Source: a virus
Direction: 5' to 3' (one strand)
IMG/VR virus record: IMGVR_UViG_3300045988_007107
Span: 1-44,614 of that record
DNA: 44,614 bases
In this document: positions 1,866 through 44,614 of the stretch, piece by piece
How positions within the stretch are numbered: position 1 is the stretch's first letter
Layout: each line of letters begins with the position of its first letter
The notes under the pieces: model-generated
Databases searched by the model: none
What the model was told of the DNA's origin: nothing
Seen by the model: only the letters and a program-made list of their open reading frames with translations
Made by a program: the position numbers and the translations under genes

Positions 1866-4116
1866 GCTCTTCTCTCGGTGAAATTTGGTTATTTTTAACT
1901 TCAAAATTACCATTATTTTTCACCCATCTTCTGATAGTTTTTTCGCTGACCGGTTTATCTTCTGTTGAAAAATATTCCACCACTTCACTTAATTCGACTG
2001 GGTTGTTCCCATCAAATAATACCTGCATGGCGGTCTTAAATCTTTCATCAGCAGATTTCTTTTTCTTCTCGTTAGCTTTCTTGCTGTCTAGATTCTTCTT
2101 CCAACCTGGCGCAGAGTCCTCTAATTGAATATCAGCCAGCACACCAGTAGTGTCCACTTCATGAACTGGATAGCTGAACCACATATTGACCGGTTGGAAT
2201 TTAGCAAACTCACGAAGGGTCCCTTCAACTCGCCAAGCAGTTGCAATCTCAATACTATGGGTCGTCGTCTTGACCTCGTCAAGGTAAGGTTTACGCTTCA
2301 TAACATCAGGAATTGCTTTATCAAAGTGCTGTTGCATCTGATATCGACTTTCCAGATCATCGAGACTGACATAGTGTTGGTAGTAGTCGTTTGCTTGTTC
2401 TTGGAGAGCTCGTTGATAAATTCTAGCTGTTGCTTTTTCAGTACGAGCTTTAACGAGGTCTTCGTTAAGCTCTAACTCTACTAAGTCAACCAGAGCATCA
2501 GGGTCTCTGGCAAATACCCCAGAACCGCTAGCACGGTCCATGGACTTCTTACCACCTTGAGAACCTTTTGAGTGATGGTGACAATAGATTACAGCACACC
2601 CTAGCTCAGTAGCTACCTTATCGAACTGATTGGTAAAATGTGCCATTTGATCCGCTGAGTTCTCGTCGCCAGTCAGGACCTTATAGATAGGGTCGATAAT
2701 AACCGCTTGGTAATTCTTTTTCAGCGACCGCCTAATGAGTTTCGGGGCCAGCTTATCCATTGGCACTGTCTTCCCACGGAGATTCCAGATATCGATATTG
2801 CCAACGCTTGCTGGAGGTAAATTCATAGCATCGTAGACGTCTTTAAAGCGGTGAAGGGCTGACGGCCTATCCAGCTCTAAGTTGACGTAGAGGACTTTCC
2901 CTTGTTCGCACTGCCAACCAAGCCACTTGTGCCCCTCTGCGATAGCGATTGATAACTCGATGAGAGCAAACGACTTACCAGCTTTTGACGGCCCTGCAAT
3001 TAGCATCTTATGACCTTGACGCAACACACCGTGGATAAGTTCTGGGGCTAAATCTGGAAGGTGGTCCCACTCGTCCGCTAGTGTTTCAGGATCAGGAAGG
3101 TCATCGTTTAAATCTTCAACCCATTGATACCATTCTTCGTAGTTGGCTTTCCCCAGATTTGTATCAATCAAGAATTGCTTATGGCCATTTCGGATAACTC
3201 CAGGCATGCGAGAGAGTCGACTTGGATTACGGTTTTGGGTGTCAATATCAAGCCCGTTTTTCTTACAAATCTGATAAATGTAATCGACACGTTTCCGATA
3301 TTCTTGGTAGTCTCTAGCATCCACTCGTACCACTGCGTGTAGCGACTTGTGTCCAGAGTGTACCAGTGTCGCAATAGGAAGCTCCAACTCTTTAAATAGA
3401 GCGTATTGTTTCCCAAGCTCCATGCTGTCTGATTCTACTAAAGCGTATCTGAAATCAGTGACATTATCGTTCTTGACGCCCTTTCCATCCAATGGGTTGA
3501 AACGAATCCAAGCACCGGCTTCTTCCTTGTAGTCTCCGAAGACTGCGCCAATATCATCACCATTACTCTGAAGTTCTTTGATAAGCTCTCCGGCAGTCCT
3601 GTCGTAATTGCCTTGAGTTGGCTTATAGATTGGCCCGTTCTCTGTTTCAATCGGATAAGTAGATGTGACATAGCCAACAAGGTCGGTCATTTCAAACAAC
3701 GTTTCGATGTATTTGATAAGGTCTTTGACTGGATGCCAATTAATCGGTTCTCGGATTTCCTTTGATTCGACCCAGTTCTTATCTACGATTTGATAATCAC
3801 GGTCGATTGTAGAATCCCAGTCGAGCTCATAGTTTTCACCCGACTTGTTCATTGGTTCCCAGCCGTTATCTTTGGCCATTTGTGTGATAGTTGCACCAGT
3901 AACAGCACCCCCTCCGTCGTATTGGAAGGTATCCCATTTACTGAAACACTCACCTTTTTTATAGCGACTATCAGATTGAGACCAAGTATCCCAATCCATT
4001 GCCGTGTAACCCTCTTGTTTTAGGGCCATTCCTACGTTTACCCACTCTTGATAAGACAATGTAGAAGGATCAATATAATCTAAGAGTGGGATTAAATCAA
4101 AAGTACCTTCTGACAT
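1852..4116 (-). CDS. Primase-polymerase / replicative helicase fusion protein (PriCT-2-like N-terminus, prim-pol core, AAA_25/RepA-DnaB-like P-loop domain)
   Basis: The N-terminus reads YQEWVNVGMALKQEGY...WDTWSQSDSRYKKGECFSKW. The P-loop is AGPSKAGKSF, the Walker B-like motif is AVIIDPIYK, and CHHHSKG follows. The position next to the SF2 helicase fits this call. Confidence 0.8.
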   Translation of the reverse strand: MSEGTFDLIPLLDYIDPSTLSYQEWVNVGMALKQEGYTAMDWDTWSQSDSRYKKGECFSKWDTFQYDGGGAVTGATITQMAKDNGWEPMNKSGENYELDWDSTIDRDYQIVDKNWVESKEIREPINWHPVKDLIKYIETLFEMTDLVGYVTSTYPIETENGPIYKPTQGNYDRTAGELIKELQSNGDDIGAVFGDYKEEAGAWIRFNPLDGKGVKNDNVTDFRYALVESDSMELGKQYALFKELELPIATLVHSGHKSLHAVVRVDARDYQEYRKRVDYIYQICKKNGLDIDTQNRNPSRLSRMPGVIRNGHKQFLIDTNLGKANYEEWYQWVEDLNDDLPDPETLADEWDHLPDLAPELIHGVLRQGHKMLIAGPSKAGKSFALIELSIAIAEGHKWLGWQCEQGKVLYVNLELDRPSALHRFKDVYDAMNLPPASVGNIDIWNLRGKTVPMDKLAPKLIRRSLKKNYQAVIIDPIYKVLTGDENSADQMAHFTNQFDKVATELGCAVIYCHHHSKGSQGGKKSMDRASGSGVFARDPDALVDLVELELNEDLVKARTEKATARIYQRALQEQANDYYQHYVSLDDLESRYQMQQHFDKAIPDVMKRKPYLDEVKTTTHSIEIATAWRVEGTLREFAKFQPVNMWFSYPVHEVDTTGVLADIQLEDSAPGWKKNLDSKKANEKKKKSADERFKTAMQVLFDGNNPVELSEVVEYFSTEDKPVSEKTIRRWVKNNGNFEVKNNQISPREEPGTK

Positions 4117-4126
4117 TTAATCTCCT

Positions 4127-5710
4127 TTATTCTGGTTGGTATGTAGCTGGAATGATTCCTTTTGGTATTCTCCAGCCGCTGGCAGCGATTCGGTTAATCA
4201 AATTGCTGGCATCTTCAAATTTCCACATTCCGACATTGCGGAAGCCACGACCTTCGAGTAATCGTATTTGTTTAGGTGTGGTCAACCCACTGTCTTTGCG
4301 TTTGTTTAATCGGTCCAGTAGTTTACCAGCTTTTCCAGCATTCCCGATTTCTTCAGCATAAATACCGAATTTTTCGAGTGCTTTAAGCTGTTTTTCTGAA
4401 GGAGGAGCCATCTCCCAACCGAATGATGGGACGTAGTCCGCTAAATCTTCGGCTTGGATTGACATTTCGAACTGTAACGGATCCACAAGTTTACGTTTTT
4501 TCTTTCGCTGTTCTGCGAGTTGCTTAGCGAGAGCTTCTTCTCTCTCGGCGACAACATCTTTTCCAGCTTGTTCTTCGGCTTCCAATAGACTGAACTCAAC
4601 CTCGGTATCTTCAGCCATGTTTTCGGTCATTTTTTTGGCAACTTCTGGACTGCTGGCGATTAAATGCGCTGGTCTACAAAGTTCGTGACGTTCAGTGTGC
4701 CATAGGAAATCGAGTAGTAATAGGTTCTCTTTCCCTGGAGCGAGACGTGTTCCACGACCAACCATTTGACTATACAGAGCACGGACTTTTGTCGGCCTTA
4801 ACACAACCACGCAGTCAACTGTCGGGCAATCCCAGCCCTCAGTTAATAGCATCGAGTTGCACAAAACATTGTATTTATCCTTGTCGAAATCTTCTAGGAT
4901 TTCAGCGCGATCCTTGGACTCTCCGTTTACCTCAGCAGCTCGAAAACCCTTCTCGTTTAGGATATCTCGGAATTTCTGCGATGTTTTAACTAACGGTAAG
5001 AAGACGACTGTTTTTCTGTCTTTGCACTGCTTAACCATCTCGTCTGCAATCTGTTCGAGATAAGGGTCTAGGGCTGTTCCGATTTCACTGGCTTTGAAAT
5101 CACCACCTTGTTGGCTGACTGTTGACAAGTCAAGCTCGAGAGGGATTGTAATAGCTGTGATTTTCGATAGATACCCTGATTTAATAGCGTCAACTAATGG
5201 GTACTCATAAGCTAAACTGTCGAAATAACTTCCTAAATTTCGCATATCACCACGGTCTGGCGTGGCTGTGACACCTAAGACGTTAGCTTCTCCGAAATGT
5301 TCTAGCACACGTTGATAGCCGTCTGATATAGCGTGGTGTGCTTCATCGATAACAATAGTATCGAAGTGATTAGGTGGGAATTGACTGAGTCTCTTCTCAC
5401 GCTGCATAGTCTGTACTGAACCAACGACAACACGAAACCATGAGCCGATTGAAGTATTTTCAGCTTTCTCCAGTGCCGTTCCTAGCCCTGTAGCCGTCAT
5501 TAATTTATCACTGGCTTGTTCCAAAAGTTCTGAACGATGAGCGAGAACAAGGACACGTTCTCCCATCTTGACACGGTCTTCTATAATTTTTGAAAAGACA
5601 ATGGTCTTACCACAGCCAGTGGGTAGGACAAGTAGCGTGCGCTTCCTGCCCTCCTTCCACTCTTGCTGTACTTTAGCCCTTGCCTCTTCTTGGTAAGGTC
5701 TAAGCTGCAT
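4127..5710 (-). CDS. SF2 DEAD/DEAH-box helicase (ResIII-type N-terminus)
   Basis: Walker A is LPTGCGKT, the DEAH box is VIDEAHHA, and TATP and GRGTR motifs are present. The C-terminal extension has two short repeated helical modules. Confidence 0.85.
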   Translation of the reverse strand: MQLRPYQEEARAKVQQEWKEGRKRTLLVLPTGCGKTIVFSKIIEDRVKMGERVLVLAHRSELLEQASDKLMTATGLGTALEKAENTSIGSWFRVVVGSVQTMQREKRLSQFPPNHFDTIVIDEAHHAISDGYQRVLEHFGEANVLGVTATPDRGDMRNLGSYFDSLAYEYPLVDAIKSGYLSKITAITIPLELDLSTVSQQGGDFKASEIGTALDPYLEQIADEMVKQCKDRKTVVFLPLVKTSQKFRDILNEKGFRAAEVNGESKDRAEILEDFDKDKYNVLCNSMLLTEGWDCPTVDCVVVLRPTKVRALYSQMVGRGTRLAPGKENLLLLDFLWHTERHELCRPAHLIASSPEVAKKMTENMAEDTEVEFSLLEAEEQAGKDVVAEREEALAKQLAEQRKKKRKLVDPLQFEMSIQAEDLADYVPSFGWEMAPPSEKQLKALEKFGIYAEEIGNAGKAGKLLDRLNKRKDSGLTTPKQIRLLEGRGFRNVGMWKFEDASNLINRIAASGWRIPKGIIPATYQPE

Positions 5711-7485: not shown

Positions 7486-8583
7486 CTAAAATTCTGATCC
7501 ACGGATTTCTTTTACCATTTCAAAGACACGGTCCCAAGTAGCTACTAGAGCCCCGTCGATGAATGATTTGTCGTACATTGATATAGGTGTTTCAATAGGG
7601 TAGTAACCTTTAGAAGCTACAGCCTGTTGAAGTTCTTGTTCCGTGACCTGATTAGCAATCATTAGATCACGAAGAGCTGGCTCGATGAATGGAGCGGGCT
7701 CTTGATAAGCTCCACGTTCCACTGGCGCAGGGTTGACCGGCTCTTGTGGTTCTGGAGTTTGTGTTTGAGTTTGAATAGGTGTTTCTTCCACTGGCGCTGG
7801 AGTTGGTTTAGGTGCCGGCGGTGGGGTCTGTACCTCTACTGGCTGCTTAGCAACTTGAACATTATTGAAGATATGAGCAATTCCGGCGTAGTCTAGCGGC
7901 AGTTTATTAGGCAGATTGTGACGATTCTTTGCATCCCACGCTGGGTGATGTTGTGTATACATGACACGTTGTCCACCTTGTGCCTTCGACTTCTTGGATT
8001 TTTCATCAGTCATTACGATTGTCTCGTAGTTACAGAATAGAACCATGTCAGCCCATTCTTTAACCAACGGAGCTGTCTGCGAGCTTGTTTTCTTCCCAAG
8101 CTTGAGCTCGTAACGGTCATAACTTCCCATTTCGTCTGGTTGAGTAAAGGTCTTAATCTGAGCGTGTGCAGTAAGAACAACATTGATTCCTAGATCAATC
8201 AATTCGCTTAGACTGTTTAGGAAACGTCCAATTTCTTCACGGACGTAGGTATACCCATTACCCCAGCCAAAATCTTCGATTCCCTTCTTGCCATGCTGAG
8301 CGCAAACAGATTCAACCGCTAACGACTCAGCCCAATCGATTGTATCGATTACCAGAGTCCTACACGAGTCGGGATTTGCTTTGATGAAAGCAATCTCGTT
8401 CATCAACATGGTCCAACTTGATGGCTTATCCAATCTAGCTACATCCATATTGTCTGTAGAGCCTTCCGTGTCGATGAACACAGGGTCTGGAAACTGAGCT
8501 GCAAAACTTGATTTTCCGATGCCTTCAGGACCGTAGATAACGACCTTTTGAGCTCTGGCTTTAATACCTCTTGTGATTTGCAT
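7486..8583 (-). CDS. Sak4/AAA_24-like RecA-fold ATPase with a P/T/Q-rich linker and a small C-terminal domain
   Basis: Walker A is YGPEGIGKSS and Walker B is LVIDTIDW. The preferred start is the ATG at 8583 (MQITRG) with GGAGG 6 nt upstream and a TAATG overlap with the upstream gene. The linker reads PPPAPKPTPAPVEETPIQTQTQTPEPQEP. Confidence 0.75.
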   Translation of the reverse strand: MQITRGIKARAQKVVIYGPEGIGKSSFAAQFPDPVFIDTEGSTDNMDVARLDKPSSWTMLMNEIAFIKANPDSCRTLVIDTIDWAESLAVESVCAQHGKKGIEDFGWGNGYTYVREEIGRFLNSLSELIDLGINVVLTAHAQIKTFTQPDEMGSYDRYELKLGKKTSSQTAPLVKEWADMVLFCNYETIVMTDEKSKKSKAQGGQRVMYTQHHPAWDAKNRHNLPNKLPLDYAGIAHIFNNVQVAKQPVEVQTPPPAPKPTPAPVEETPIQTQTQTPEPQEPVNPAPVERGAYQEPAPFIEPALRDLMIANQVTEQELQQAVASKGYYPIETPISMYDKSFIDGALVATWDRVFEMVKEIRGSEF

Positions 8584-9896
8584 TAAAATCCTCCTTGCCA
8601 TGATGGCGTTTGTGGTGTTTCGATTTCAGCTTCCGTTGTTGGCTGATGCGTCTTGTTATCGAGACTATAGCCGTCTTCGATGATAATTGAGCATTCATCA
8701 CCAGTCGACACTCTCGTTGCAATGGCTTGTAGACCTTCATCTTCAAGCCATTTCCCAAATTGATTCAGTGTGATTTGGTCCATTTGTTCGAGTTTGTCGA
8801 TTAAAACGAAGCCACAATCCGGTTTTAGTTTTCGGACGATTGCGGTCGCTACCATGAGTTGTTGAGAACCTGACATGTTATCCCACTCTTGACCGAGATA
8901 GAGAAGTTTTCCATCGTTGACAGATAGACCTTCGAGTGGTAAGTCAGCATTAGTTAATAGGTCACGCTTGTCTTTTCGGACAGCTTCGATTTCGCTAGAT
9001 AATCTGTTGTATTCTTCACGTTGGACTCTAGCTTCTTCTTCAGCTTTTTCTTTGTCAAGATTAGCTCGAACCTTGAGGTTGATTTGCTCGATATTAGCGA
9101 TATTGCTTTCGATTTCTTCTGTAGATTCATCAATAAGGTCAATCGTTAAGTCGGTAGCGATTTGAAGGTCGTTTTCAAGAACTTCCAATTCTGCTTGAGC
9201 TGCCTTCAATTGTTCTGACAAACGGTTAACTTCAGCAAGTTTGCCTTCGTAGGCAGTTTTAATTTGCTGAGCGTTTTGACGTTTGCGAGCATTCTCTCCG
9301 TTTTTAGCCAACACCCCTTGTTGTTCTGCAATCAGATCTGCAATGGAAACTAACTCTTTTGGTGCGTCTGGATAATAGGTTTGTTCTTTTGCGAACTTCT
9401 CCTTCTGGTCTGCAATCACACCGATAGCGTGACGCTTGTCATATAACTGCTTCTCTTTGATTTCTAACTCGGCTAATTGGGGACCAACTCCGATGATTTG
9501 CAAAAGAATGTCAGCCTTCTCTTTAGCTGTGCTATCCATAAATTTCGGGAGGTTGATAGCCAATTCCTCAACAAAACTATCAAGAAGTTGTTGACCGCCT
9601 TTATTCCCATTAGGATCAATTACTTTCAGAGAACTATTCTTTCCTTTTCTCTCAACAATCAATCCATTTGACATGGTAATTTTAAGAGAAGGAGGAACGA
9701 CAGAACCTTCACGAGCTGCCTTGCTAGGTTTAAATCGATTTCCACCCAATGCCCAAGCAATAGAATCTAACACGCTTGTTTTACCTTGGTTGTTATTCCC
9801 ACCAATTACTGTGAGACCAGTAGGCGATGGCTCAACTTTGACTGCTTTGATTCGTTTAACGTTTTCGATTTCTAACTTATTTATTGCGATGCTCAT
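8583..9896 (-). CDS. SMC/SbcC/RecF-like ABC-type ATPase with a central coiled coil
   Basis: Walker A is GGNNNQGKTS, followed by a long heptad-rich middle region. The signature motif is SGSQQ and Walker B is FVLIDKLEQMD. Confidence 0.75.
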   Translation of the reverse strand: MSIAINKLEIENVKRIKAVKVEPSPTGLTVIGGNNNQGKTSVLDSIAWALGGNRFKPSKAAREGSVVPPSLKITMSNGLIVERKGKNSSLKVIDPNGNKGGQQLLDSFVEELAINLPKFMDSTAKEKADILLQIIGVGPQLAELEIKEKQLYDKRHAIGVIADQKEKFAKEQTYYPDAPKELVSIADLIAEQQGVLAKNGENARKRQNAQQIKTAYEGKLAEVNRLSEQLKAAQAELEVLENDLQIATDLTIDLIDESTEEIESNIANIEQINLKVRANLDKEKAEEEARVQREEYNRLSSEIEAVRKDKRDLLTNADLPLEGLSVNDGKLLYLGQEWDNMSGSQQLMVATAIVRKLKPDCGFVLIDKLEQMDQITLNQFGKWLEDEGLQAIATRVSTGDECSIIIEDGYSLDNKTHQPTTEAEIETPQTPSWQGGF

Positions 9897-11517
9897 TCAC
9901 TCGACCCTCGCTTTCGTTATACTTCTTAAATCCAAGAGTTAGAGCAGTGATACCTGCTGCAATGACCACAAGACCTAATGTGCTAGCAATTCCTTCTTTC
10001 TCGCCGGTAAGTGGAAGAGTACCACCGTAAACGGTTGTTTTAGGTGTCTCTTTGCTTGCTGGTGCGAAGTTATAAGATACTGTGGCAGGTTGTGCCACTT
10101 TTTCTTTTGGCACTTCTACGGGCTTGCTTGGCACCTCTTTCGGTGTCACTGGTTTTTCTGGCTCTACTGGGATGTGCAACTCTGGCAAATCCAAGATAGG
10201 GGCATCATTCGGAACTACTCCACCCTCGAATGGTGGAAGTTCACGCTCTTCCGGAATTCCAGGGATGCCCCCCTCAAATTCCGGAACGTCAACCTTTGGA
10301 GCTTCACGAGGAACTTCAAACGTTGGCTCCGGCTTGTTTTCACCAGACGCATCACCTCGTCCGCCGACAAGTTGAATCTTCATATATGAAACAGCGCCGT
10401 CTGATTCAGCTTTCAGTTCAATCTTGTTAGTAGGGTTAGTTGAGTCCTTAACAGCATTTACAAGTTTTGTTTTGTAGTACAAGTAAACCATGTGGTCTAA
10501 ACGATCCATTTTGATTTCAAATCCATGCTCAGATTTTGAGATAGACTTAACTAAGTCCATAGCTGAGCCTTTGTCAATCCAAGGGTCTACACTTTCGATG
10601 TTTTTGATTTCAAAGTAGTTATCAACCAACTTTTGGTTTTCTGACATTTCATCAACGATAGTCACATAGTTAAGTACCTTCTTTGCATAGTTAACTCGTG
10701 CTGTCCAATTAATCACAGTAGGGTCTTCTTTGTCTTGGAATCCCCATTTAGAAATCAATTCATCTTTACCGATGACCCCCTCATTACCAACATTGACTGT
10801 TACTACAGTTCCATTGAAATTGATATTTACTGGCTTACCTGCCACAACTTTATCTGTCCAACTTGCATCTAGTTTCAAGTTCATGATCTTATTCAAAGGG
10901 TGTGATTTGAAATAGTCGTTAAATACAGTGGTTACTTTGTTAGTGGTAGCGTCTGCTGTAGCTTTACCAACTACTGCTTTTTCTGGATTGTGTACATCAA
11001 ACTCGTAAGAGGTTTGGAATTTCACTTCTTGAGGCAAGTCGAAAGTAACCTTGTCACCCTCGTTAACCGGCACATTGTCTGGAATTTGAATATCTTTGTA
11101 TTCCACTTCGAATGGGCTATACTTACCATTGCCGTTAGGGAATGTTACGTTAACTTCTGGATTGGAAACGGTGATTTCTGTCCCCTCTTTAGTAACTGTA
11201 GTAGGTGCTGCTGGAGTTTCTGCCACTGGAGTAGCTGGAGTTTCCGCAATAGGTTGCGCTTCAACCGGCGCTGGTGTTTCTACTGGTGCCACTGTTTCAG
11301 TAGATGGTGTCACTGTCACATTTCCAGCGTTATCGGCAGTGTATACGTTAGACACTGTTGGTTGAGTATTTACTGCTGTTTCAGTCACTTCATCGGCTGA
11401 TACTGCACCAGCTCCGATTAGTAGAGCGGTAGCAAGAGCAACCGTTCCGCACAAGCCATAGGCTTTGCTCTTGGTGAAAGAAGTTTTAGCGATTGTTTGA
11501 GTGTTGAATGATTTCAT
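9877..11517 (-). CDS. LPXTG cell-wall-anchored surface adhesin with a Cna-type collagen-binding-like A domain (cargo gene / moron)
   Basis: It has a signal peptide ending AVSADE and a T/P/A-rich spacer. Cna-like motifs are present (PTVINWTARVNYAKKVLNYVTIVDEMSENQKL). A proline-rich wall-spanning region follows, then LPLTG, a hydrophobic helix and a basic tail. Confidence 0.85.
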   Translation of the reverse strand: MKSFNTQTIAKTSFTKSKAYGLCGTVALATALLIGAGAVSADEVTETAVNTQPTVSNVYTADNAGNVTVTPSTETVAPVETPAPVEAQPIAETPATPVAETPAAPTTVTKEGTEITVSNPEVNVTFPNGNGKYSPFEVEYKDIQIPDNVPVNEGDKVTFDLPQEVKFQTSYEFDVHNPEKAVVGKATADATTNKVTTVFNDYFKSHPLNKIMNLKLDASWTDKVVAGKPVNINFNGTVVTVNVGNEGVIGKDELISKWGFQDKEDPTVINWTARVNYAKKVLNYVTIVDEMSENQKLVDNYFEIKNIESVDPWIDKGSAMDLVKSISKSEHGFEIKMDRLDHMVYLYYKTKLVNAVKDSTNPTNKIELKAESDGAVSYMKIQLVGGRGDASGENKPEPTFEVPREAPKVDVPEFEGGIPGIPEERELPPFEGGVVPNDAPILDLPELHIPVEPEKPVTPKEVPSKPVEVPKEKVAQPATVSYNFAPASKETPKTTVYGGTLPLTGEKEGIASTLGLVVIAAGITALTLGFKKYNESEGRVNEHRNK

Positions 11518-11547
11518 GATATACTCCTTGTGTAGATGTTTTTTCTA

Positions 11548-11574
11548 GCATGGGCCCTAACCCATGCTTTTTTT
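11548..11574 (+). terminator. Intrinsic-terminator-like hairpin oriented on the plus strand, directly upstream of the minus-strand adhesin start codon
   Basis: The 7-bp stem gcatggg (11548-11554) / cccatgc (11561-11567) has a 6-nt loop and is followed by T7 (11568-11574). Confidence 0.5.
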
Positions 11575-11578
11575 AGTG

Positions 11579-11732
11579 CTTCAATCCGCACCCATAGCCC
11601 CACCGCTTCGGTTTATTAGTAAAGTAAATATGTTTTTTTAGAAAGATATGTGTGGGTAAAGTAAAGTTTATATTTTTGGGAAGAATGGGTATAAGATACA
11701 CTCCACGACGGGGCCGTGGCTACGGATTGAAG
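11579..11732. repeat. Imperfect 23-bp inverted repeat flanking a 108-bp AT-rich segment upstream of the adhesin gene
   Basis: cttcaatccgcacccatagcccc (11579-11601) matches the reverse complement of ggggccgtggctacggattgaag (11710-11732) at 19 of 23 positions. The interior contains GTAAAGTAAA twice. Confidence 0.6.
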
Positions 11733-11741
11733 ATAGTGATC

Positions 11742-11897
11742 TTAACGGTTTCCGTATTTTGCTAAAAGCTCTTGTTCACGTTTTTTGCGAGCTTCATATT
11801 TGCGTTCATTTTCTTCGTATGGTGTCCATACTGGTTCGAAGAAATATTCTGGTTCTTTCTCTTTTTTAGACCAAATCCAGTTAAATAGTTTTTTCAT
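11742..11897 (-). CDS. Small hypothetical early protein (51 aa from MKKLFNWIW)
   Basis: The internal ATG at 11897 is preceded by AAAGGAA. The longer 77-aa form has no ribosome-binding site and runs into a structured region. Confidence 0.45.
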   Translation of the reverse strand: MKKLFNWIWSKKEKEPEYFFEPVWTPYEENERKYEARKKREQELLAKYGNR

Positions 11898-11931
11898 TTT
11901 TAATTCCTTTCTATTCCCTAACCGCACTAGA

Positions 11932-12023
11932 GAGCTAGTGAGGTTCATATATTTAAGGAGACTTATGAATATCAAATCGTTGTTGCTTACTTAGTTGGTA
12001 TCGTTCAGTTTCCTCACTAGCTC
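11932..12023. repeat. Perfect 12-bp inverted repeat (gagctagtgagg / cctcactagctc) separated by 68 nt between the xis-like gene and the next ORF
   Basis: Read directly at 11932-11943 and 12012-12023. Smaller hairpins are nested inside: cactag-agag-ctagtg at 11926-11941 and ttcata...tatgaa. Confidence 0.7.
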
Positions 12024-12046
12024 ACTGCTACGGCTAGGGTTATGTG

Positions 12047-12328
12047 CTAGGCAATCTCTTGCCAGTTGTTGTTAAACCAATCTCTTACGGGGTCCCGTGG
12101 GTATCTGATTTGTGCCCCTCGACCTTTGTCGATTTTAGGGAAACCGTCAAGATTGGTTATCCGTAGAAATTCTGTGTAGTTGCCAATTCCTAACATTGAC
12201 TGGCACTGTTTAGCAGTCAGAATCAGTGGGAGTGTTTCGTCTATGTCAAACGCTTTTGATTTATCTGCTATGACTGCAGTCAGCATGCTGTCAAACTGGT
12301 CAGCTAATGGTTTGAATGGGTTGCCCAT
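12047..12328 (-). CDS. Excisionase/MerR-like (HTH_17-type) DNA-binding protein
   Basis: The LTAKQCQSMLGIGNYTEFLRI...IRYPRDPVRDWF pattern is typical of phage Xis-like HTH proteins. It is the second gene of the early operon. Confidence 0.6.
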   Translation of the reverse strand: MGNPFKPLADQFDSMLTAVIADKSKAFDIDETLPLILTAKQCQSMLGIGNYTEFLRITNLDGFPKIDKGRGAQIRYPRDPVRDWFNNNWQEIA

Positions 12329-12353
12329 TTTCGTCTCACCTCTTCCTAATCTG

Positions 12354-12367
12354 TACGAAATTTCGTA
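12354..12367. promoter_or_regulatory. Perfect 14-bp palindrome TACGAAATTTCGTA, a putative distal operator
   Basis: Read directly. Related sites lie at 12625-12638 (12 of 14 matches) and 12656-12669 (10 of 14 matches) in the switch region. Confidence 0.6.
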
Positions 12368-12385
12368 TATCTAGGTTAAAAAAAT

Positions 12386-12589
12386 TTAGGCTTCATCACG
12401 TTCACTGAATAGGTATTCTAATTCATATTCTGGGAAGAATACCTTCTTGATAGCCACTGTTTCGCCAAAACTGAAATCTGTTACACCGTTAATCTTGCTA
12501 CGAACCGTGCGATAATCAACTCCTAGCAAATCGGCAATGTCTACTAATGTAACACCTTTGTTCTTACGAATTTCTTCGATGTTTTTCAT
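12386..12589 (-). CDS. Cro-like XRE-family HTH regulator, 67 aa
   Basis: The HTH is VTLVDIADLLGVDYRTVRSKING. It is the first gene of the minus-strand early operon and is divergent from the repressor. The RBS is GGAGGAAG. Confidence 0.8.
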   Translation of the reverse strand: MKNIEEIRKNKGVTLVDIADLLGVDYRTVRSKINGVTDFSFGETVAIKKVFFPEYELEYLFSERDEA

Positions 12590-12618
12590 TTGCTTCCTCC
12601 TTCCTTAAGCTTGATTTA

Positions 12619-12647
12619 AGTATATACTAATTTTCGTATACTGTCAA
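12619..12647 (-). promoter_or_regulatory. Early lytic promoter (TTGACA - 17 nt - TATACT) with an operator-like site in the spacer
   Basis: The minus strand reads TTGACAgtatacgaaaattagtaTATACT. The spacer (12625-12641) contains the operator-like site TACTAATTTTCGTA (12625-12638). Confidence 0.7.
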
Positions 12648-12678
12648 CACAAAAGTACGATTTTTTTTACTTTTTTTA

Positions 12679-12707
12679 TTTACCTATACAATTTTCTGTG
12701 TTAATAT
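12679..12707 (+). promoter_or_regulatory. Repressor-side promoter (TTTACC - 17 nt - TGtTAATAT extended -10)
   Basis: The plus strand reads tttacc at 12679-12684, has a 17-nt spacer, then TG at 12699-12700 and TAATAT at 12702-12707. It lies about 30 nt upstream of the GAGGA RBS of the repressor gene. Confidence 0.55.
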
Positions 12708-12739
12708 ATATGTAGAAATAAAAATGAGGATTATAAAAA

Positions 12740-13084
12740 ATGCAGTCTGAAGAAAGAATTAAAGAGCTTATTATAGCTAAATATGGAAATGTTAGAGCTT
12801 TTGCGACAGAAAGCGGCATTTCTTATACTACTGTTCGCTCTATTTTGGAACGTGGTATCATGAATGCAAAAGCTGAGAATATTTTTAAGATATGTCGTTT
12901 ATTGGGGATATCACCGGATACTGTCGCAGATTGGGGAGTTTCCAACGAACTACAACCCAGCTCCCATGACATTGATGAAATCATAGCTAATGCAATGATG
13001 TTTGACGGCAAACCGCTGACCGATGATGATAAGCGGGCAATCCGTGGCATCATTGCGGGCTATATGAATAGCAAGGAAAAGTGA
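12740..13084 (+). CDS. cI-like XRE-family HTH repressor, 114 aa
   Basis: The HTH is NVRAFATESGISYTTVRSILERG. It is divergent from the cro-like gene and is followed by an ImmA-type peptidase gene. Confidence 0.8.
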   Translation: MQSEERIKELIIAKYGNVRAFATESGISYTTVRSILERGIMNAKAENIFKICRLLGISPDTVADWGVSNELQPSSHDIDEIIANAMMFDGKPLTDDDKRAIRGIIAGYMNSKEK

Positions 13085-13489: not shown

Positions 13490-13966
13490 ATGAAAATGAA
13501 AATGGATGATGTTAGAAATATACCTACTTACTTAAAATTCGAAACAACTTTTGGCTGTACTTTTGGTGGGCTTATTTTAGGTTTTATCTTTCCTCCTTTT
13601 TGGTTATTAATGTTTGTGGGTATTGCTTTACTGTTCGCACGACTTTTTTGGGAGATAAAACACCCTATGACTAAAGAGCAAAAAGAACAATCAAAAATAG
13701 AGCAAGTAAAAGCGAAAGAGGAATTTCAACAAGCGAGAAATGAGTATAAAAAGGCAATGGCAGAAGCAAGAGCTGTAAAATGCCCTCATTGCAAAAGTAC
13801 GGACGTTGAATTTATGGTACAGCAAAGAAAAGGTTTCTCAGTTGGTAAAGCCGCTGCTGGAACTATTATGACTGGCGGTGTTGGTGCTCTAGCTGGTTTT
13901 GCTGGTAAGAAGGGCAAAAAAGAGTGGCACTGTAAGAACTGCGGTGCAGTCTTTACTACTAAATAA
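13490..13966 (+). CDS. Membrane protein with a coiled-coil linker and a C-terminal zinc ribbon split by a glycine-zipper segment (candidate superinfection-exclusion or Abi protein)
   Basis: The hydrophobic region is FGCTFGGLILGFIFPPFWLLMFVGIALLFARLFW, followed by a K/E-rich helix. Then come CPHC ... GKAAAGTIMTGGVGALAGFAGKKGKK ... CKNC. The gene sits between the immunity genes and int. Confidence 0.6.
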   Translation: MKMKMDDVRNIPTYLKFETTFGCTFGGLILGFIFPPFWLLMFVGIALLFARLFWEIKHPMTKEQKEQSKIEQVKAKEEFQQARNEYKKAMAEARAVKCPHCKSTDVEFMVQQRKGFSVGKAAAGTIMTGGVGALAGFAGKKGKKEWHCKNCGAVFTTK

Positions 13967-14045: not shown

Positions 14046-15125
14046 ATGGCATCATACAGAAAACGAGAAAACGGCTGGGAATATCGGATAAACTACTACG
14101 ATTCTACTGGCAAACGAAAACCAAAGTCAAAAGGTGGTTTTCGGACTAAATCTGAAGCTATCAAGGCTGCTGCTGAAATGGAATTAAAATTACAAGAGAC
14201 TATCAATGTTGACGAAGATATCACTCTTTACGCTTATTTCAAGCAGTGGTGCGAAGTTTATAAGAAACCTACTGTTTCCAAAATAACTTATAAGGCATAT
14301 ATCAACACCCAGCGTAAGATAGAATTATTTTTTGGCGACAAGAAACTAAAATCTGTCACTGCCACACAGTACCAGCGTGCACTGAATAGCTACGCTAAAA
14401 CTCACGCTCAAGATACTGTCGAGCGTTTTAATGTGCATGTAAAATCATGCGTTGAAATGGCGGTTCATGAGGGATATATCAAGCGTAACTTTTGTAAGTT
14501 TGCTAAAATCAACGCAAAAAATAAAGGGCGTGATATTGAAACGAAATTCCTAGAGGTCGAGGAATACGAGCGATTGATCTACGAAACAAGCAAACATCCA
14601 GAATTTTCGTCTTATGCAGCACTCTATATCATAGCTAAAACTGGTATCCGATTCGCTGAGTGTCTAGGACTAACAGTGGACGATATCAATCGAGATACTG
14701 GCATGTTATCTGTCAATAAAACATGGGACTATAAGAATAATACTGGTTTCTTACCGACAAAAACAAAAAGCAGTATCCGAGAGATACCACTTGATGATGA
14801 ATTTATAAATTTTATTGACCAACTGCCACCTACTGAAGACGGTAGGCTACTACCATCACTATCCAACAATGCAGTTAATAAGACCTTGCGTAAAATCGTT
14901 GGGCGTGAGGTACGTGTCCACTCGTTAAGACACACTTACGCTAGCTACTTAATCTCACACGACATTGACTTAATATCGGTATCGCAAGTTTTAGGGCATG
15001 AGAATCTAAACATCACGCTTGAGGTCTACGCTCACCAATTACAAGAGCAGAAATCAAGAAACGACGAAAAGATAAAACAAATGTGGACAGAATGTGGACA
15101 AAACGCTTTAAAACCGCATGGTTAA
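14046..15125 (+). CDS. int: Tyrosine recombinase, phage integrase
   Basis: The C-terminal catalytic motifs are HSLRHTYASYLI and LGHENLNITLEVYAH. It has an N-terminal SAM-like domain and is about 359 aa. Confidence 0.9.
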   Translation: MASYRKRENGWEYRINYYDSTGKRKPKSKGGFRTKSEAIKAAAEMELKLQETINVDEDITLYAYFKQWCEVYKKPTVSKITYKAYINTQRKIELFFGDKKLKSVTATQYQRALNSYAKTHAQDTVERFNVHVKSCVEMAVHEGYIKRNFCKFAKINAKNKGRDIETKFLEVEEYERLIYETSKHPEFSSYAALYIIAKTGIRFAECLGLTVDDINRDTGMLSVNKTWDYKNNTGFLPTKTKSSIREIPLDDEFINFIDQLPPTEDGRLLPSLSNNAVNKTLRKIVGREVRVHSLRHTYASYLISHDIDLISVSQVLGHENLNITLEVYAHQLQEQKSRNDEKIKQMWTECGQNALKPHG

Positions 15126-15489: not shown

Positions 15490-16896
15490 TTATTTACCAG
15501 TTTGACCTTGTGTAGCTTGTGCTCGGTCTTCGATTTGCTTAATCACTGCCACGTTTGCTTCACGGATAGCTTGTTCTACCCCTTTAATGTCGTTGCTTTG
15601 ACTTTCAAGGAAGCGTTTAAAATCACCATCATCCAATTGCAAACGTTTAGCACCTACTCCTTCAAGAGTGTCAACCGTACTCATTGAACCGATACCAAAT
15701 ACACGGCCATTAACGACTGCCACCCAGCCTTCTGCTCCAGATTCACTTCTTACTACAAAATTCATAATATCTTCTTCCTCTTTCTTTTTCTTAAAACTAT
15801 CACCGACGATTACCACGTTCTTATCCAACCCACCAGCAATTCCTGTACTTGTAAATTGCCACCATTTCGTGTGGCTCATGTTAGGATAAATCTCCCAGAC
15901 CGGATGCGGTGTTACATCATAGTTTGGATAAGCTGCAATCCATAAGCTATTCGGATAGCGTGCAGTGATTTGATCTACATACACATTAGCTAGTGTGTAC
16001 GGCTTGTAACTGTAATAGATAGGCTCGAAGCCGTTTGACTTACAAACGTCCATGAATGCCAATACTGCATTGGTGTTAGCTTGCTTGTCCCCACTAGCTC
16101 CGTCCTCATAGTCACATACAAGGTATTTAGGTCGTGATGGTAGATTACTAACAAAGTAATTTGCTTCAGCTTGTGCAGTGCCTACATCACCACCGAAACG
16201 AGCGAAATGATAGTAACCAATACAGTTACTTGTGTTGGTTTGTTGTGCCATAACTGGACTTAACCATCCGACACCCTCTGAAACCTTAATAATAGTATTC
16301 CTAGTGCCAGACGCTTGGCAAATTCCAGTGAGGTCTGCTGATTGGTAGGCTGATACATCGATGAAGTAATCGCCTTTGTTCATGCCTTCGGTTTCTAAAT
16401 CGTCTCCAGCACCATCAAATGGCAATTCAAACCAACCAACCATTTGCTGAGTTGGCGCATTCCAGTCAATATAACTGAAATTACCGGCACTATCGAGGTT
16501 CCTTGTTACCTTGCGAGTCCAACCGCCATTATAGAGGGCATCTCCATTCCTATCGATATTCTGTTCAACGGTGGTAACTGTCCCGTCTGGGTTCTCTGCG
16601 ACTACGAAACCGATATGTCCGAATTGGTGGTATGGCAAGCAGTTAGTTACCCAAACACTCCCCACTGGCGGATTGTTAGCACCGTTAAAGCGTGTGACTT
16701 TAAGCCCTAGACTTTCAGCACGGCTTAAGCCATCGATGGCATTTAAGTAGCTGAAATCAAGGTTAAACAAGCCTTGATATTGCAAAACGTTGTCAATCAA
16801 AGCCACACATTGCCCGCCATAAGGGTTAGTGGGGACAGTGACACGTTGATTAACGAGACTATCAAGCGTGTTTAATAATTGTGCTTTAGATGTCAT
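15490..16896 (-). CDS. Endolysin with an N-terminal CHAP domain, a central GH25 muramidase domain and an unassigned C-terminal domain
   Basis: CHAP motifs: YGGQCVALI ... FGHIGFVV ... EQN. GH25 motifs: DVSAYQ ... IIKVSEG ... CDYED ... WWQFTS. It is the last gene of the late operon. Confidence 0.85.
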   Translation of the reverse strand: MTSKAQLLNTLDSLVNQRVTVPTNPYGGQCVALIDNVLQYQGLFNLDFSYLNAIDGLSRAESLGLKVTRFNGANNPPVGSVWVTNCLPYHQFGHIGFVVAENPDGTVTTVEQNIDRNGDALYNGGWTRKVTRNLDSAGNFSYIDWNAPTQQMVGWFELPFDGAGDDLETEGMNKGDYFIDVSAYQSADLTGICQASGTRNTIIKVSEGVGWLSPVMAQQTNTSNCIGYYHFARFGGDVGTAQAEANYFVSNLPSRPKYLVCDYEDGASGDKQANTNAVLAFMDVCKSNGFEPIYYSYKPYTLANVYVDQITARYPNSLWIAAYPNYDVTPHPVWEIYPNMSHTKWWQFTSTGIAGGLDKNVVIVGDSFKKKKEEEDIMNFVVRSESGAEGWVAVVNGRVFGIGSMSTVDTLEGVGAKRLQLDDGDFKRFLESQSNDIKGVEQAIREANVAVIKQIEDRAQATQGQTGK

Positions 16897-44244: not shown

Positions 44245-44614
44245 CTATTCCACCTCTTTCACTTCCACGCCTGGGCAGTCGAACACCCAGCCGAGATTCA
44301 ATTTTTCGAGGTCGTTTTTCGTGAAATCCATCCTAAAGCCTGGAGAGAAATGAAGATTCCCCTCATCGTTGCATAAGTATTGATTAGTGACTTTGATTCT
44401 GACAGTGTACTTCGTCTCTTTCTCGACCTCATACCCAAACTGGTGCATGTTGACGAGGACACTAAAAGGGCTTGTTTTGCCACTAATCAGCCATTCTTGG
44501 AAGTCAGTCAAAACGCCACAGTTGTATTTTTTTTCAGTCTGGCAGACCTCTCGATACAGATTTATCTCCAATTCATCCTTATGCACCTCATACCAATCCG
44601 CCACATACTGCGGC
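44245..44614 (-). CDS. C-terminal segment of the junction-spanning DUF1642-like CDS (see 1..208)
   Basis: The track ORF 44245..44604 starts at a GTG only because the window ends. The frame stays open to 44614 and continues at 89..208 of the duplicated copy. Confidence 0.7.
   Translation of the reverse strand, partial: PQYVADWYEVHKDELEINLYREVCQTEKKYNCGVLTDFQEWLISGKTSPFSVLVNMHQFGYEVEKETKYTVRIKVTNQYLCNDEGNLHFSPGFRMDFTKNDLEKLNLGWVFDCPGVEVKEVE
44526..44614. repeat. Terminal direct repeat, copy 2 (identical to 1..89)
   Basis: The 89 nt match bases 1-89 exactly by eye. Confidence 0.95.

Follow-up and report, generated by a model that had tools for sequence, protein, structure and literature searches.

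The 44,614-nt stretch of viral DNA analysed here (IMG/VR virus record IMGVR_UViG_3300045988_007107, taken at its full length and called the window below) is the genome of a temperate phage of the Streptococcus salivarius type. Its minus strand carries, at positions 9877–11517, an open reading frame (ORF) of 546 codons for an LPXTG surface protein, with an ATG start and a stop codon at 9877–9879, which was delimited by ORF calling and by Pfam, NCBIfam and structure matches. The reading we prefer, with a probability of roughly 0.55, is that the product is a compact, stalk-less adhesin of the MSCRAMM fold, that the gene is a recurrent phage cassette present here as a mosaic copy, and that the protein is made from an early operon headed by a cro-like gene. 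As an accessory cassette the gene recurs among temperate siphophages that infect oral streptococci (salivarius, parasanguinis and mitis/sanguinis groups), and the window copy is a slightly rearranged member of a family that is annotated and uncharacterised. The molecular part of the reading is well supported by the sequence: the protein would be exported, anchored by sortase, and display an MSCRAMM-fold binding module near the wall.

Architecture and predicted fold of the adhesin

An earlier note, made from the bare sequence, had described the full architecture of a wall-anchored adhesin, and every element that it listed is present. The N-terminus (residues 1–42, MKSFNTQTIAKTSFTKSKAYGLCGTVALATALLIGAGAVSA|DE; 11392–11517, minus strand, as are all adhesin features below) resembles a signal peptide of the YSIRK type; inspection of the sequence shows a lysine-rich n-region, the hydrophobic core LCGTVALATALLIGAGAV and a c-region ending in VSA|DE, and the TIGR03726 score is 17 bits, under the cut-off of 20.85 bits. 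A spacer recognised by its composition follows at residues 43–105 (11203–11391), of which residues 44–105 are 21% threonine, 18% alanine, 16% valine and 16% proline. The A region (residues 106–395; 10333–11202) comprises two domains according to Pfam and the structure model, the first matching Big_8 (residues 142–226, E 7.1e-14) and the second Collagen_bind (residues 253–359, E 6.8e-11), both above their gathering scores; the hmmscan that the note had proposed as a check thus returned a significant Collagen_bind match. Here Collagen_bind is merely the name of a Pfam family, and collagen as the ligand is putative.

Behind the A region lies a proline- and glutamate-rich wall-spanning segment (residues 396–497, P 22%, E 16%; 10027–10332) containing two FEGG units of the SIALI-17 type, the NCBIfam SIALI-17 repeat scoring 32 bits there against a cut-off of 30. 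This segment is 19–35 residues shorter than in phages SA-TP2, Javan535 and YMC-2011. The protein then has the order of elements expected of a sortase substrate, namely the motif LPLTG (residues 501–505; 10003–10017), a hydrophobic segment (residues 510–530) and a charged tail that begins KK (KKYNESEGRVNEHRNK, residues 531–546; segment and tail together 9880–9990). The Pfam model Gram_pos_anchor (PF00746) stays under its cut-off in the window copy (14.5 versus 20 bits, E 0.036) and is passed by many close relatives; as that model is short and weak, the low score lowers confidence in a sortase substrate only slightly. The adhesin has no match in PHROGs and none in PADLOC. We rejected the label 'sialidase' carried by the homologues in Javan534, Javan535 (locus L003, 4744–6465) and Javan539, which have no sialidase domain; the label most likely derives from the proline-rich SIALI-17 repeat.

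An AlphaFold2 model of residues 96–407 reached a pLDDT of 91.3 and a pTM of 0.79 with an alignment deepened by 58 more distant relatives; a shallow alignment, holding only relatives of >79% identity, had given a pLDDT of 59.5. In a Foldseek search of the PDB, the 33 top matches of the 50 listed, and nearly all the others, were two-domain adhesin A regions; the non-MSCRAMM chains among these 50 were two Als adhesins of the yeast Candida and one unrelated chain, all lower down. The model aligned over its full length to MSCRAMM A regions with TM-scores of 0.6–0.69 and E-values of 1e-14 to 1e-17. By TM-score the best match was Cna (2f68, 0.66/0.69), while SdrE bound to complement factor H gave an E-value of 1e-17, and Bbp, ClfA, SdrG, RspB and Cnm were also found. 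Sequence identity to the matched structures is 12–17%, and sequence searches of the PDB with the single protein or with a family profile returned nothing significant. The two adjacent IgG-like (DEv-IgG) subdomains that define an MSCRAMM are indicated alike by the model, Foldseek and Pfam. On the predicted structure, then, the profile and fold matches are significant and far beyond chance, and the profile matches, the fold and the LPLTG motif agree with the note's proposal of a phage gene for an LPXTG-anchored surface protein of the Cna/Sdr type. A viral structure library held a single protein with the same fold, a 'clumping factor' of an uncultured siphovirus.

Two features of the model look like the trench motif and a candidate latch of this adhesin class. 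The first domain contains VTTVFNDYF (residues 195–203), within which [VT]FN[DN]YF is invariant across the family; we take this family motif to resemble the TYTFTDYVD motif of Clf/Sdr proteins. After the second domain, an extra strand, GRGDASGE (residues 386–393), is confidently modelled. This strand includes an RGD tripeptide (within GGRGDASGEN; residues 387–389, 10351–10359). Because its arginine alternates with lysine in the family (GKGDA in Javan535), the tripeptide is probably structural rather than an integrin motif. Invariant in the family are K257, D289 and N364, which could form a Lys-Asp-Asn isopeptide triad.

Set against the structurally known adhesins, the window protein shares with the collagen-hug group (S. 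aureus Cna, 2F68 and 2F6A; Ace; RspB; Cnm) the two-domain IgG-like A region, the Collagen_bind match and the LPXTG signal, but is only 14–16% identical to the Cna-type proteins and lacks their CnaB/FctA stalk repeats; its collagen binding is putative. The best Foldseek E-values (1e-17 to 1e-15) go to the Clf/Sdr proteins that bind by dock, lock and latch (SdrE, Bbp, ClfA, SdrG), in particular to their ligand-bound closed forms. With these it has in common the motif in the first domain and the extra C-terminal strand; unlike them it has no Ser-Asp repeat region, comes from another genus, and has a latch that is a candidate only.

A recurrent cassette of streptococcal phages

The earlier note had treated the gene as rare cargo captured by this phage. 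That view does not hold: a gene in the same slot is annotated in several phages, relatives occur widely in viral contigs, and the G+C content of the gene (0.431) matches that of the genome (0.423) and of the replication module (0.437), so that its composition is not atypical. Tblastn found full-length homologues in the S. salivarius phages SA-TP2 (81% identity), Javan534, Javan535 and Javan539 (75%), Javan536 (59%) and YMC-2011 (56%), along with partial ones in S. parasanguinis Javan371 and S. mitis Javan311. For the YMC-2011 homologue, Ssal_phage00024, an annotation that names both LPXTG and collagen binding already exists ('lpxtg cell wall surface protein, collagen binding domain protein'); its counterparts are gp23 in SA-TP2 and the genes numbered '0035' in Javan534, Javan535 and Javan539. 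These homologues, 56–81% identical over their full length, share with the window the slot after the phrog_1022 ORF and leader described below, the orientation and the order of domains. They differ in the downstream replication module, and the window protein has fewer proline-rich units and a private extension that overlaps the ATPase gene.

Relatives of the adhesin turn up on at least 482 viral contigs of IMG/VR; the best 80 of these are 81–96% identical in the A region. A large protein database gave 1620 and 3360 relatives for two queries. In a scan of one genome per species, about 25 loci had ≥55% A-region identity, and all of these but the ones on short contigs were flanked by phage genes on both sides. 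Their hosts were S. salivarius, S. parasanguinis, S. gingivalis and unnamed species, and every one on a contig long enough to judge lay in the early region of a prophage. A further clade, of 39–40% identity, occurs in prophages of S. sanguinis and S. oralis.

The closest relatives without phage neighbours are chromosomal S. salivarius proteins of 1008–1014 residues, 48–49% identical, such as that of strain KSS6 (NZ_CP145863, ~537.8–540.8 kb). Outside phages no closer relatives of the A region were found, and these come from the same host species, but, unlike the window protein, they have a canonical YSIRK signal, 4–10 stalk domains of the FctA (Spy0128-like) type and an LPETG motif. As they share the A region and add an FctA stalk, the phage form appears to be a compact derivative; going by the sequences, about 100 residues of proline-rich sequence stand in place of the stalk. 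Host adhesion is also altered by other proteins that phages carry, SasX/SesI of staphylococcal SPbeta-like prophages and PblA/PblB of S. mitis phage SM1. SasX, however, lies at the end of its prophage and does not have the MSCRAMM fold, PblA and PblB are virion tail proteins released by lysis, and neither case lies inside an early operon.

The position inside the early region, between the cro and other helix-turn-helix (HTH) genes and the replication module, was confirmed by ORF and PHROG calls, as the note had it. The adhesin ORF is co-oriented with the cro-like, HTH and phrog_1022 genes upstream and with the ATPase gene downstream. Its relatives are likewise always co-oriented with the early genes and tightly packed among them, in at least five different slots. 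Slot A, the type seen in the window, follows a small ORF and a conserved leader and precedes the replication module. In SA-TP2, YMC-2011 and Javan535 the adhesin gene here comes after the cro, antirepressor and HTH genes and the phrog_1022 ORF, and in Javan536 the same small ORF and leader stand directly upstream. Six GenBank phages use this slot yet carry three unrelated types of replication module, and among the best 80 IMG/VR loci about 58 have the leader. Slot B, in phages of the S. parasanguinis type, lies between the helicase and primase genes of the replication module found in the window, with gaps to the neighbouring genes of −53 to +21 nt; gaps of 2–4 nt were measured as well. Slot C is behind the replication genes and ahead of DUF1642-type genes, and two more slots exist besides these three. 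Across slots the A region stays ~83% identical, whereas signal peptides and C-termini differ.

Slot A can hold another gene. In S. vestibularis phage SVep1 (locus L090, 3361–3936) it is occupied by an unrelated 191-residue beta-solenoid protein of the YdcK type, followed by the same 106-residue ORF that YMC-2011 and SA-TP2 have behind their adhesin. The cargo of the slot is thus variable. We considered whether the SVep1 protein might be an adhesin remnant and rejected this. Measured by the usual marks of a moron, the adhesin gene is inserted between genes that are adjacent in related phages, but consensus scans assigned it neither promoter nor terminator, and its G+C content is not deviant.

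The gene looks damaged in some prophages: one copy (L004, 7577–9377) is split into two gene calls and two others (L023, L026) end before the LPXTG motif, which suggests that it is dispensable in some lysogens. A more distant homologue of 476 residues (32% identity) is encoded at 3911–5341 of MW057932 (L171), deposited as 'Campylobacter phage CJLB-5' from poultry faeces. Its gene order (cI and protease genes, early genes, excisionase, adhesin, replication protein) is laid out as in the window; the Campylobacter host label looks doubtful, since the record resembles a phage of Gram-positive bacteria. The literature searched contained no functional characterisation of phage-encoded LPXTG adhesins of oral streptococci, and the comparative picture, with its phage-specific clade, stalk-less form, variable early-operon slots and cargo slot behind a structured leader, may be undescribed.

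The upstream leader, the 3′ joint and the surrounding genes

Between the small ORF and the ATG of the adhesin, 224 nt (11518–11741, minus strand) form a conserved structured leader that is also present in more than 300 S. thermophilus phages without the adhesin, including Sfi11, 2972, 858 and O1205. It folds with a z-score of -4.4 relative to shuffled sequences. RNAalifold applied to 11 phages predicted a long-range stem of 20 pairs (5′ arm 11710–11732, 3′ arm 11579–11601), in which three columns are fully compensatory and G-U pairs are numerous, the latter implying that the sense RNA is the folded strand. Hairpin 1 occupies 11703–11719, and hairpin 2 (11547–11568) showed two compensatory columns in the same alignment. 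A Shine-Dalgarno sequence, AAGGAG, lies at 11524–11529. Rfam models matched nothing credible over 9700–12800, and the leader could have a regulatory role or be a site of RNase III-type processing. A replication origin was considered and rejected, because the origin that the literature assigns to 2972-type phages lies downstream of their replication module (PMC13575424).

On the plus strand of the leader, at 11497–11575, a promoter-like sequence (TTGAGT-17-TGaTATACT) overlaps the adhesin start codon and is followed by a canonical terminator (hairpin 11547–11568 and T7); the same pair occurs in L004. It could yield an antisense RNA of ~40 nt, reminiscent of lambda oop.

Comparison with phages lacking the insert, which the earlier note had put forward as a means of finding its boundaries, located both of them. 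In Sfi11 (L089, 3365–3409) and 2972 (L088, 3333–3377) the same ribosome-binding site and ATG open a mini-ORF of 14 codons (MKTFKITTIREGRN) with the replication gene directly after it, and the stretch after the mini-ORF has its homologue on the 3′ side of the adhesin in L094, L107 and L112 (GGGAGGG.AGGCATTAAATATGGCA). Homology on both sides thus defines the two ends of an indel of ~1.7 kb. The mini-ORF begins with 15 nt that look like the start of the adhesin gene, so the empty site may, on this sequence likeness, be a deletion scar in the dairy lineage; alternatively, the empty site may be ancestral.

The 3′ end of the adhesin ORF and the beginning of the ATPase gene (ATG at 9896–9894) have exactly 20 nt in common (9877–9896), as had been noted. 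Each of six relatives with this ATPase downstream reads GAGGAT TAA GTGA ATGAGC at this point, and the window reads GAGGGT CGA GTGA ATGAGC. A 5-nt patch, GTCGA, at approximately 9899–9903 replaces their ATTAA, so that the codon CGA (9901–9903, R539) sits where the relatives have the stop TAA, and the tail has gained eight residues. In the direction 5′ of the shared GAGG the window is identical to the L103 allele, which is normally followed by the 106-residue ORF, and from GTGAATG in the 3′ direction it is identical to the ATPase-linked module of L095. Nucleotide identity to ATPase-linked phages rises from 76–80% in the 3′ part of the adhesin gene to 93–95% in the ATPase gene, and the best A-region match (L091, 92% of nucleotides) is linked to a different replication module. 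The extension occurs in none of the best 80 IMG/VR relatives. These split identities, with the jump in identity, indicate that the stop was lost at a module-exchange joint private to the window genome: judged from the alleles compared, the window copy is a mosaic in which the recombination joint to the ATPase module removed the stop. A simple point mutation was entertained and then rejected once more alleles had been compared. The earlier note was thus right that the long tail reflects a stop codon lost at the junction; its assumption that this happened when the gene entered the phage fails, as six of six relatives keep the TAA. Behind the hydrophobic segment the KK is still there, with additional basic residues contributed by the extension, and we would expect sorting of the extended protein still to work.

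An exact 89-nt terminal repeat (positions 1–89 and 44526–44614) marks the window as a circular assembly and a complete phage genome of 44,525 bp. The genome is in its attP form, with the integrase gene (14046–15125, plus strand) adjoining the endolysin gene (15490–16896, minus strand). The early operon, on the minus strand, begins with the cro-like repressor gene (12386–12589), homologous to 2972 ORF31 and to a YMC-2011 gene, and continues with an HTH DNA-binding protein gene of phrog_668 (12047–12328), the gene previously called xis-like, and the 51-residue phrog_1022 ORF (11742–11897) that travels with the leader. Downstream of the adhesin, the AAA ATPase gene (8583–9896; phrog_1499, SbcC/SMC-like) is the first of the replication/recombination module. 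Its product gave weak PADLOC matches (E 1e-10 to 1e-5) to the defence ATPases LmuB, AriA, PtuA and GajA, a similarity that is probably generic among SMC/ABC-type ATPase heads. On the plus strand, between the genes for an ImmA-like protease and the integrase, a gene at 13490–13966 encodes a 158-residue membrane protein with a zinc-ribbon domain (phrog_24502). It had no PADLOC match; in S. thermophilus phages the same position holds the superinfection-exclusion lipoprotein Ltp.

Expression, function and competing readings

The early promoter of phage 2972 is followed first by the cro-like ORF31, after which come further early genes (PMC13575424). In the window, the sole strong sense-strand promoter match upstream of the adhesin is a candidate early promoter, TTGACA-17-TATACT (12619–12647, minus strand; 11 of 12 consensus positions), located before the cro-like gene. 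The rightward promoter of YMC-2011, upstream of its own cro-like gene, was reportedly found by Chou et al. in 2017 to be induced by mitomycin C. Consensus scans of the window slot and of three others matched no sense-strand promoter or terminator flanking the adhesin gene, such scans being weak evidence. From the single strong promoter, the operon order in 2972 and the reported YMC-2011 promoter together, we infer that the adhesin is transcribed with the cro-led early operon on infection or induction. The note's suggestion of expression from the gene's own upstream region in lysogens is unsupported, as phages without the adhesin have the leader too and neither a promoter nor a terminator belonging to the gene was matched.

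The sequence of events that we propose runs as follows. The gene occupies a variable cargo slot right after the structured leader and its ribosome-binding site, which in related phages directly precede the first gene of the replication module. The protein would be made on infection or induction, with at most a basal leak in lysogens, and would then not be an independently expressed lysogenic-conversion gene. By established sortase biology it would be exported by Sec, cleaved by sortase A between the T and G of LPLTG and linked covalently to peptidoglycan, so that its binding domains would be held near the wall surface. There a protein or peptide ligand may be bound in the trench between the two domains, with the GRGDASGE strand serving as latch.

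Several points weigh against this reading. Consensus scans miss non-canonical promoters, and early expression was deduced with their help; the AT-rich loop of the leader could conceal a promoter active in lysogens, and hairpin 1 with its U-containing tract could partly stop transcription on its way from the cro group to the adhesin. The latch is a candidate drawn from a model, the Gram_pos_anchor score of the window copy is under its cut-off, and the effect of the unusual eight-residue extension on sorting is putative. Moreover, there is no evident gain in covalently anchoring an adhesin that is produced solely in cells on the point of lysis, and phages of the dairy species S. thermophilus lack the gene, which fits a role in the host niche (colonisation) better than one in the phage cycle.

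One rival account is the classic lysogenic-conversion moron, which would be expressed from its own upstream promoter in lysogens, aid colonisation of mouth or gut, and be read through on induction. A benefit in host colonisation fits the homology to host adhesins, here 48–49% in the A domain to the chromosomal S. salivarius proteins, and the absence of the gene from dairy phages with the same flanks; a 224-nt AT-rich intergenic region lies upstream, and SVep1 carries other cargo in the slot. However, that region is a conserved phage leader found also where the gene is missing, no sense-strand promoter was matched within it, merely 10–21 nt separate the gene from its neighbours in other slots, constitutive transcription would enter the replication genes for want of a terminator after the gene, and the G+C content is not atypical. 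We rank lysogenic conversion second to early-operon expression, as a possible but clearly less probable account. Third comes an early lytic surface function that serves the phage, be it superinfection exclusion or receptor masking, protection of progeny from debris, or tethering of the infected cell in a host-dense biofilm. Phage surface proteins expressed early with exclusion-type roles include T4 Imm and Sp and the T5 lipoprotein Llp, which acts against re-adsorption of progeny to debris. A function in the infected cell fits the embedding in the operon at several slots, at least five, always co-oriented and tightly packed, and a short, stalk-less form would keep the binding domain near the wall. 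Against it, no exclusion family of PADLOC or PHROG was matched, all carriers with readable flanks appear temperate, the virulent S. thermophilus phages examined (Sfi11, 2972), which exclusion would also serve, lack the gene, and the MSCRAMM fold is known for binding host ligands; we consider it unlikely.

Decay of the gene in the window genome, whether the joint impairs sorting or is merely tolerated, would leave a passenger with no current function. The private eight-residue extension, seen in 0 of 80 relatives, and the frameshifted or truncated copies elsewhere (L004; L023 and L026) would suit this, but the frame of 546 codons is intact, the KK is kept and followed by more basic residues, and the family-invariant residues are preserved, so that we give it little credence. 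A part in the virion, structural or in host recognition, has almost nothing to recommend it beyond the frequency of Ig-like domains on virions and the adhesive tail proteins PblA/PblB of SM1; the signal peptide and LPXTG would send the protein to the cell wall, the morphogenesis genes (15.5–41 kb) are a long way from this early-region gene, and no PHROG matches it. Returning to early-operon expression, a tentative extension is that the protein is a sortase-anchored binding protein displayed on the infected cell rather than on the lysogen, as a biofilm tether or as a block to superinfection or re-adsorption, tuned by the leader, possibly through the RNase III-type processing stem and the oop-like antisense RNA.

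Taken alone, the window adds a modest result, one more slightly rearranged copy of an annotated gene. The family matters more, because S. salivarius and its relatives dominate the early colonisation of the mouth and small intestine, and hundreds of phages of these bacteria carry this wall-anchored binding protein, which may thereby shape where the bacteria stick and which strains persist. Its placement at varying positions of the early operon, without a promoter or terminator of its own, raises the question of lysogenic conversion versus manipulation of the infected cell. If display on infected cells proved true, phages of Gram-positive bacteria would have a new class of early function.

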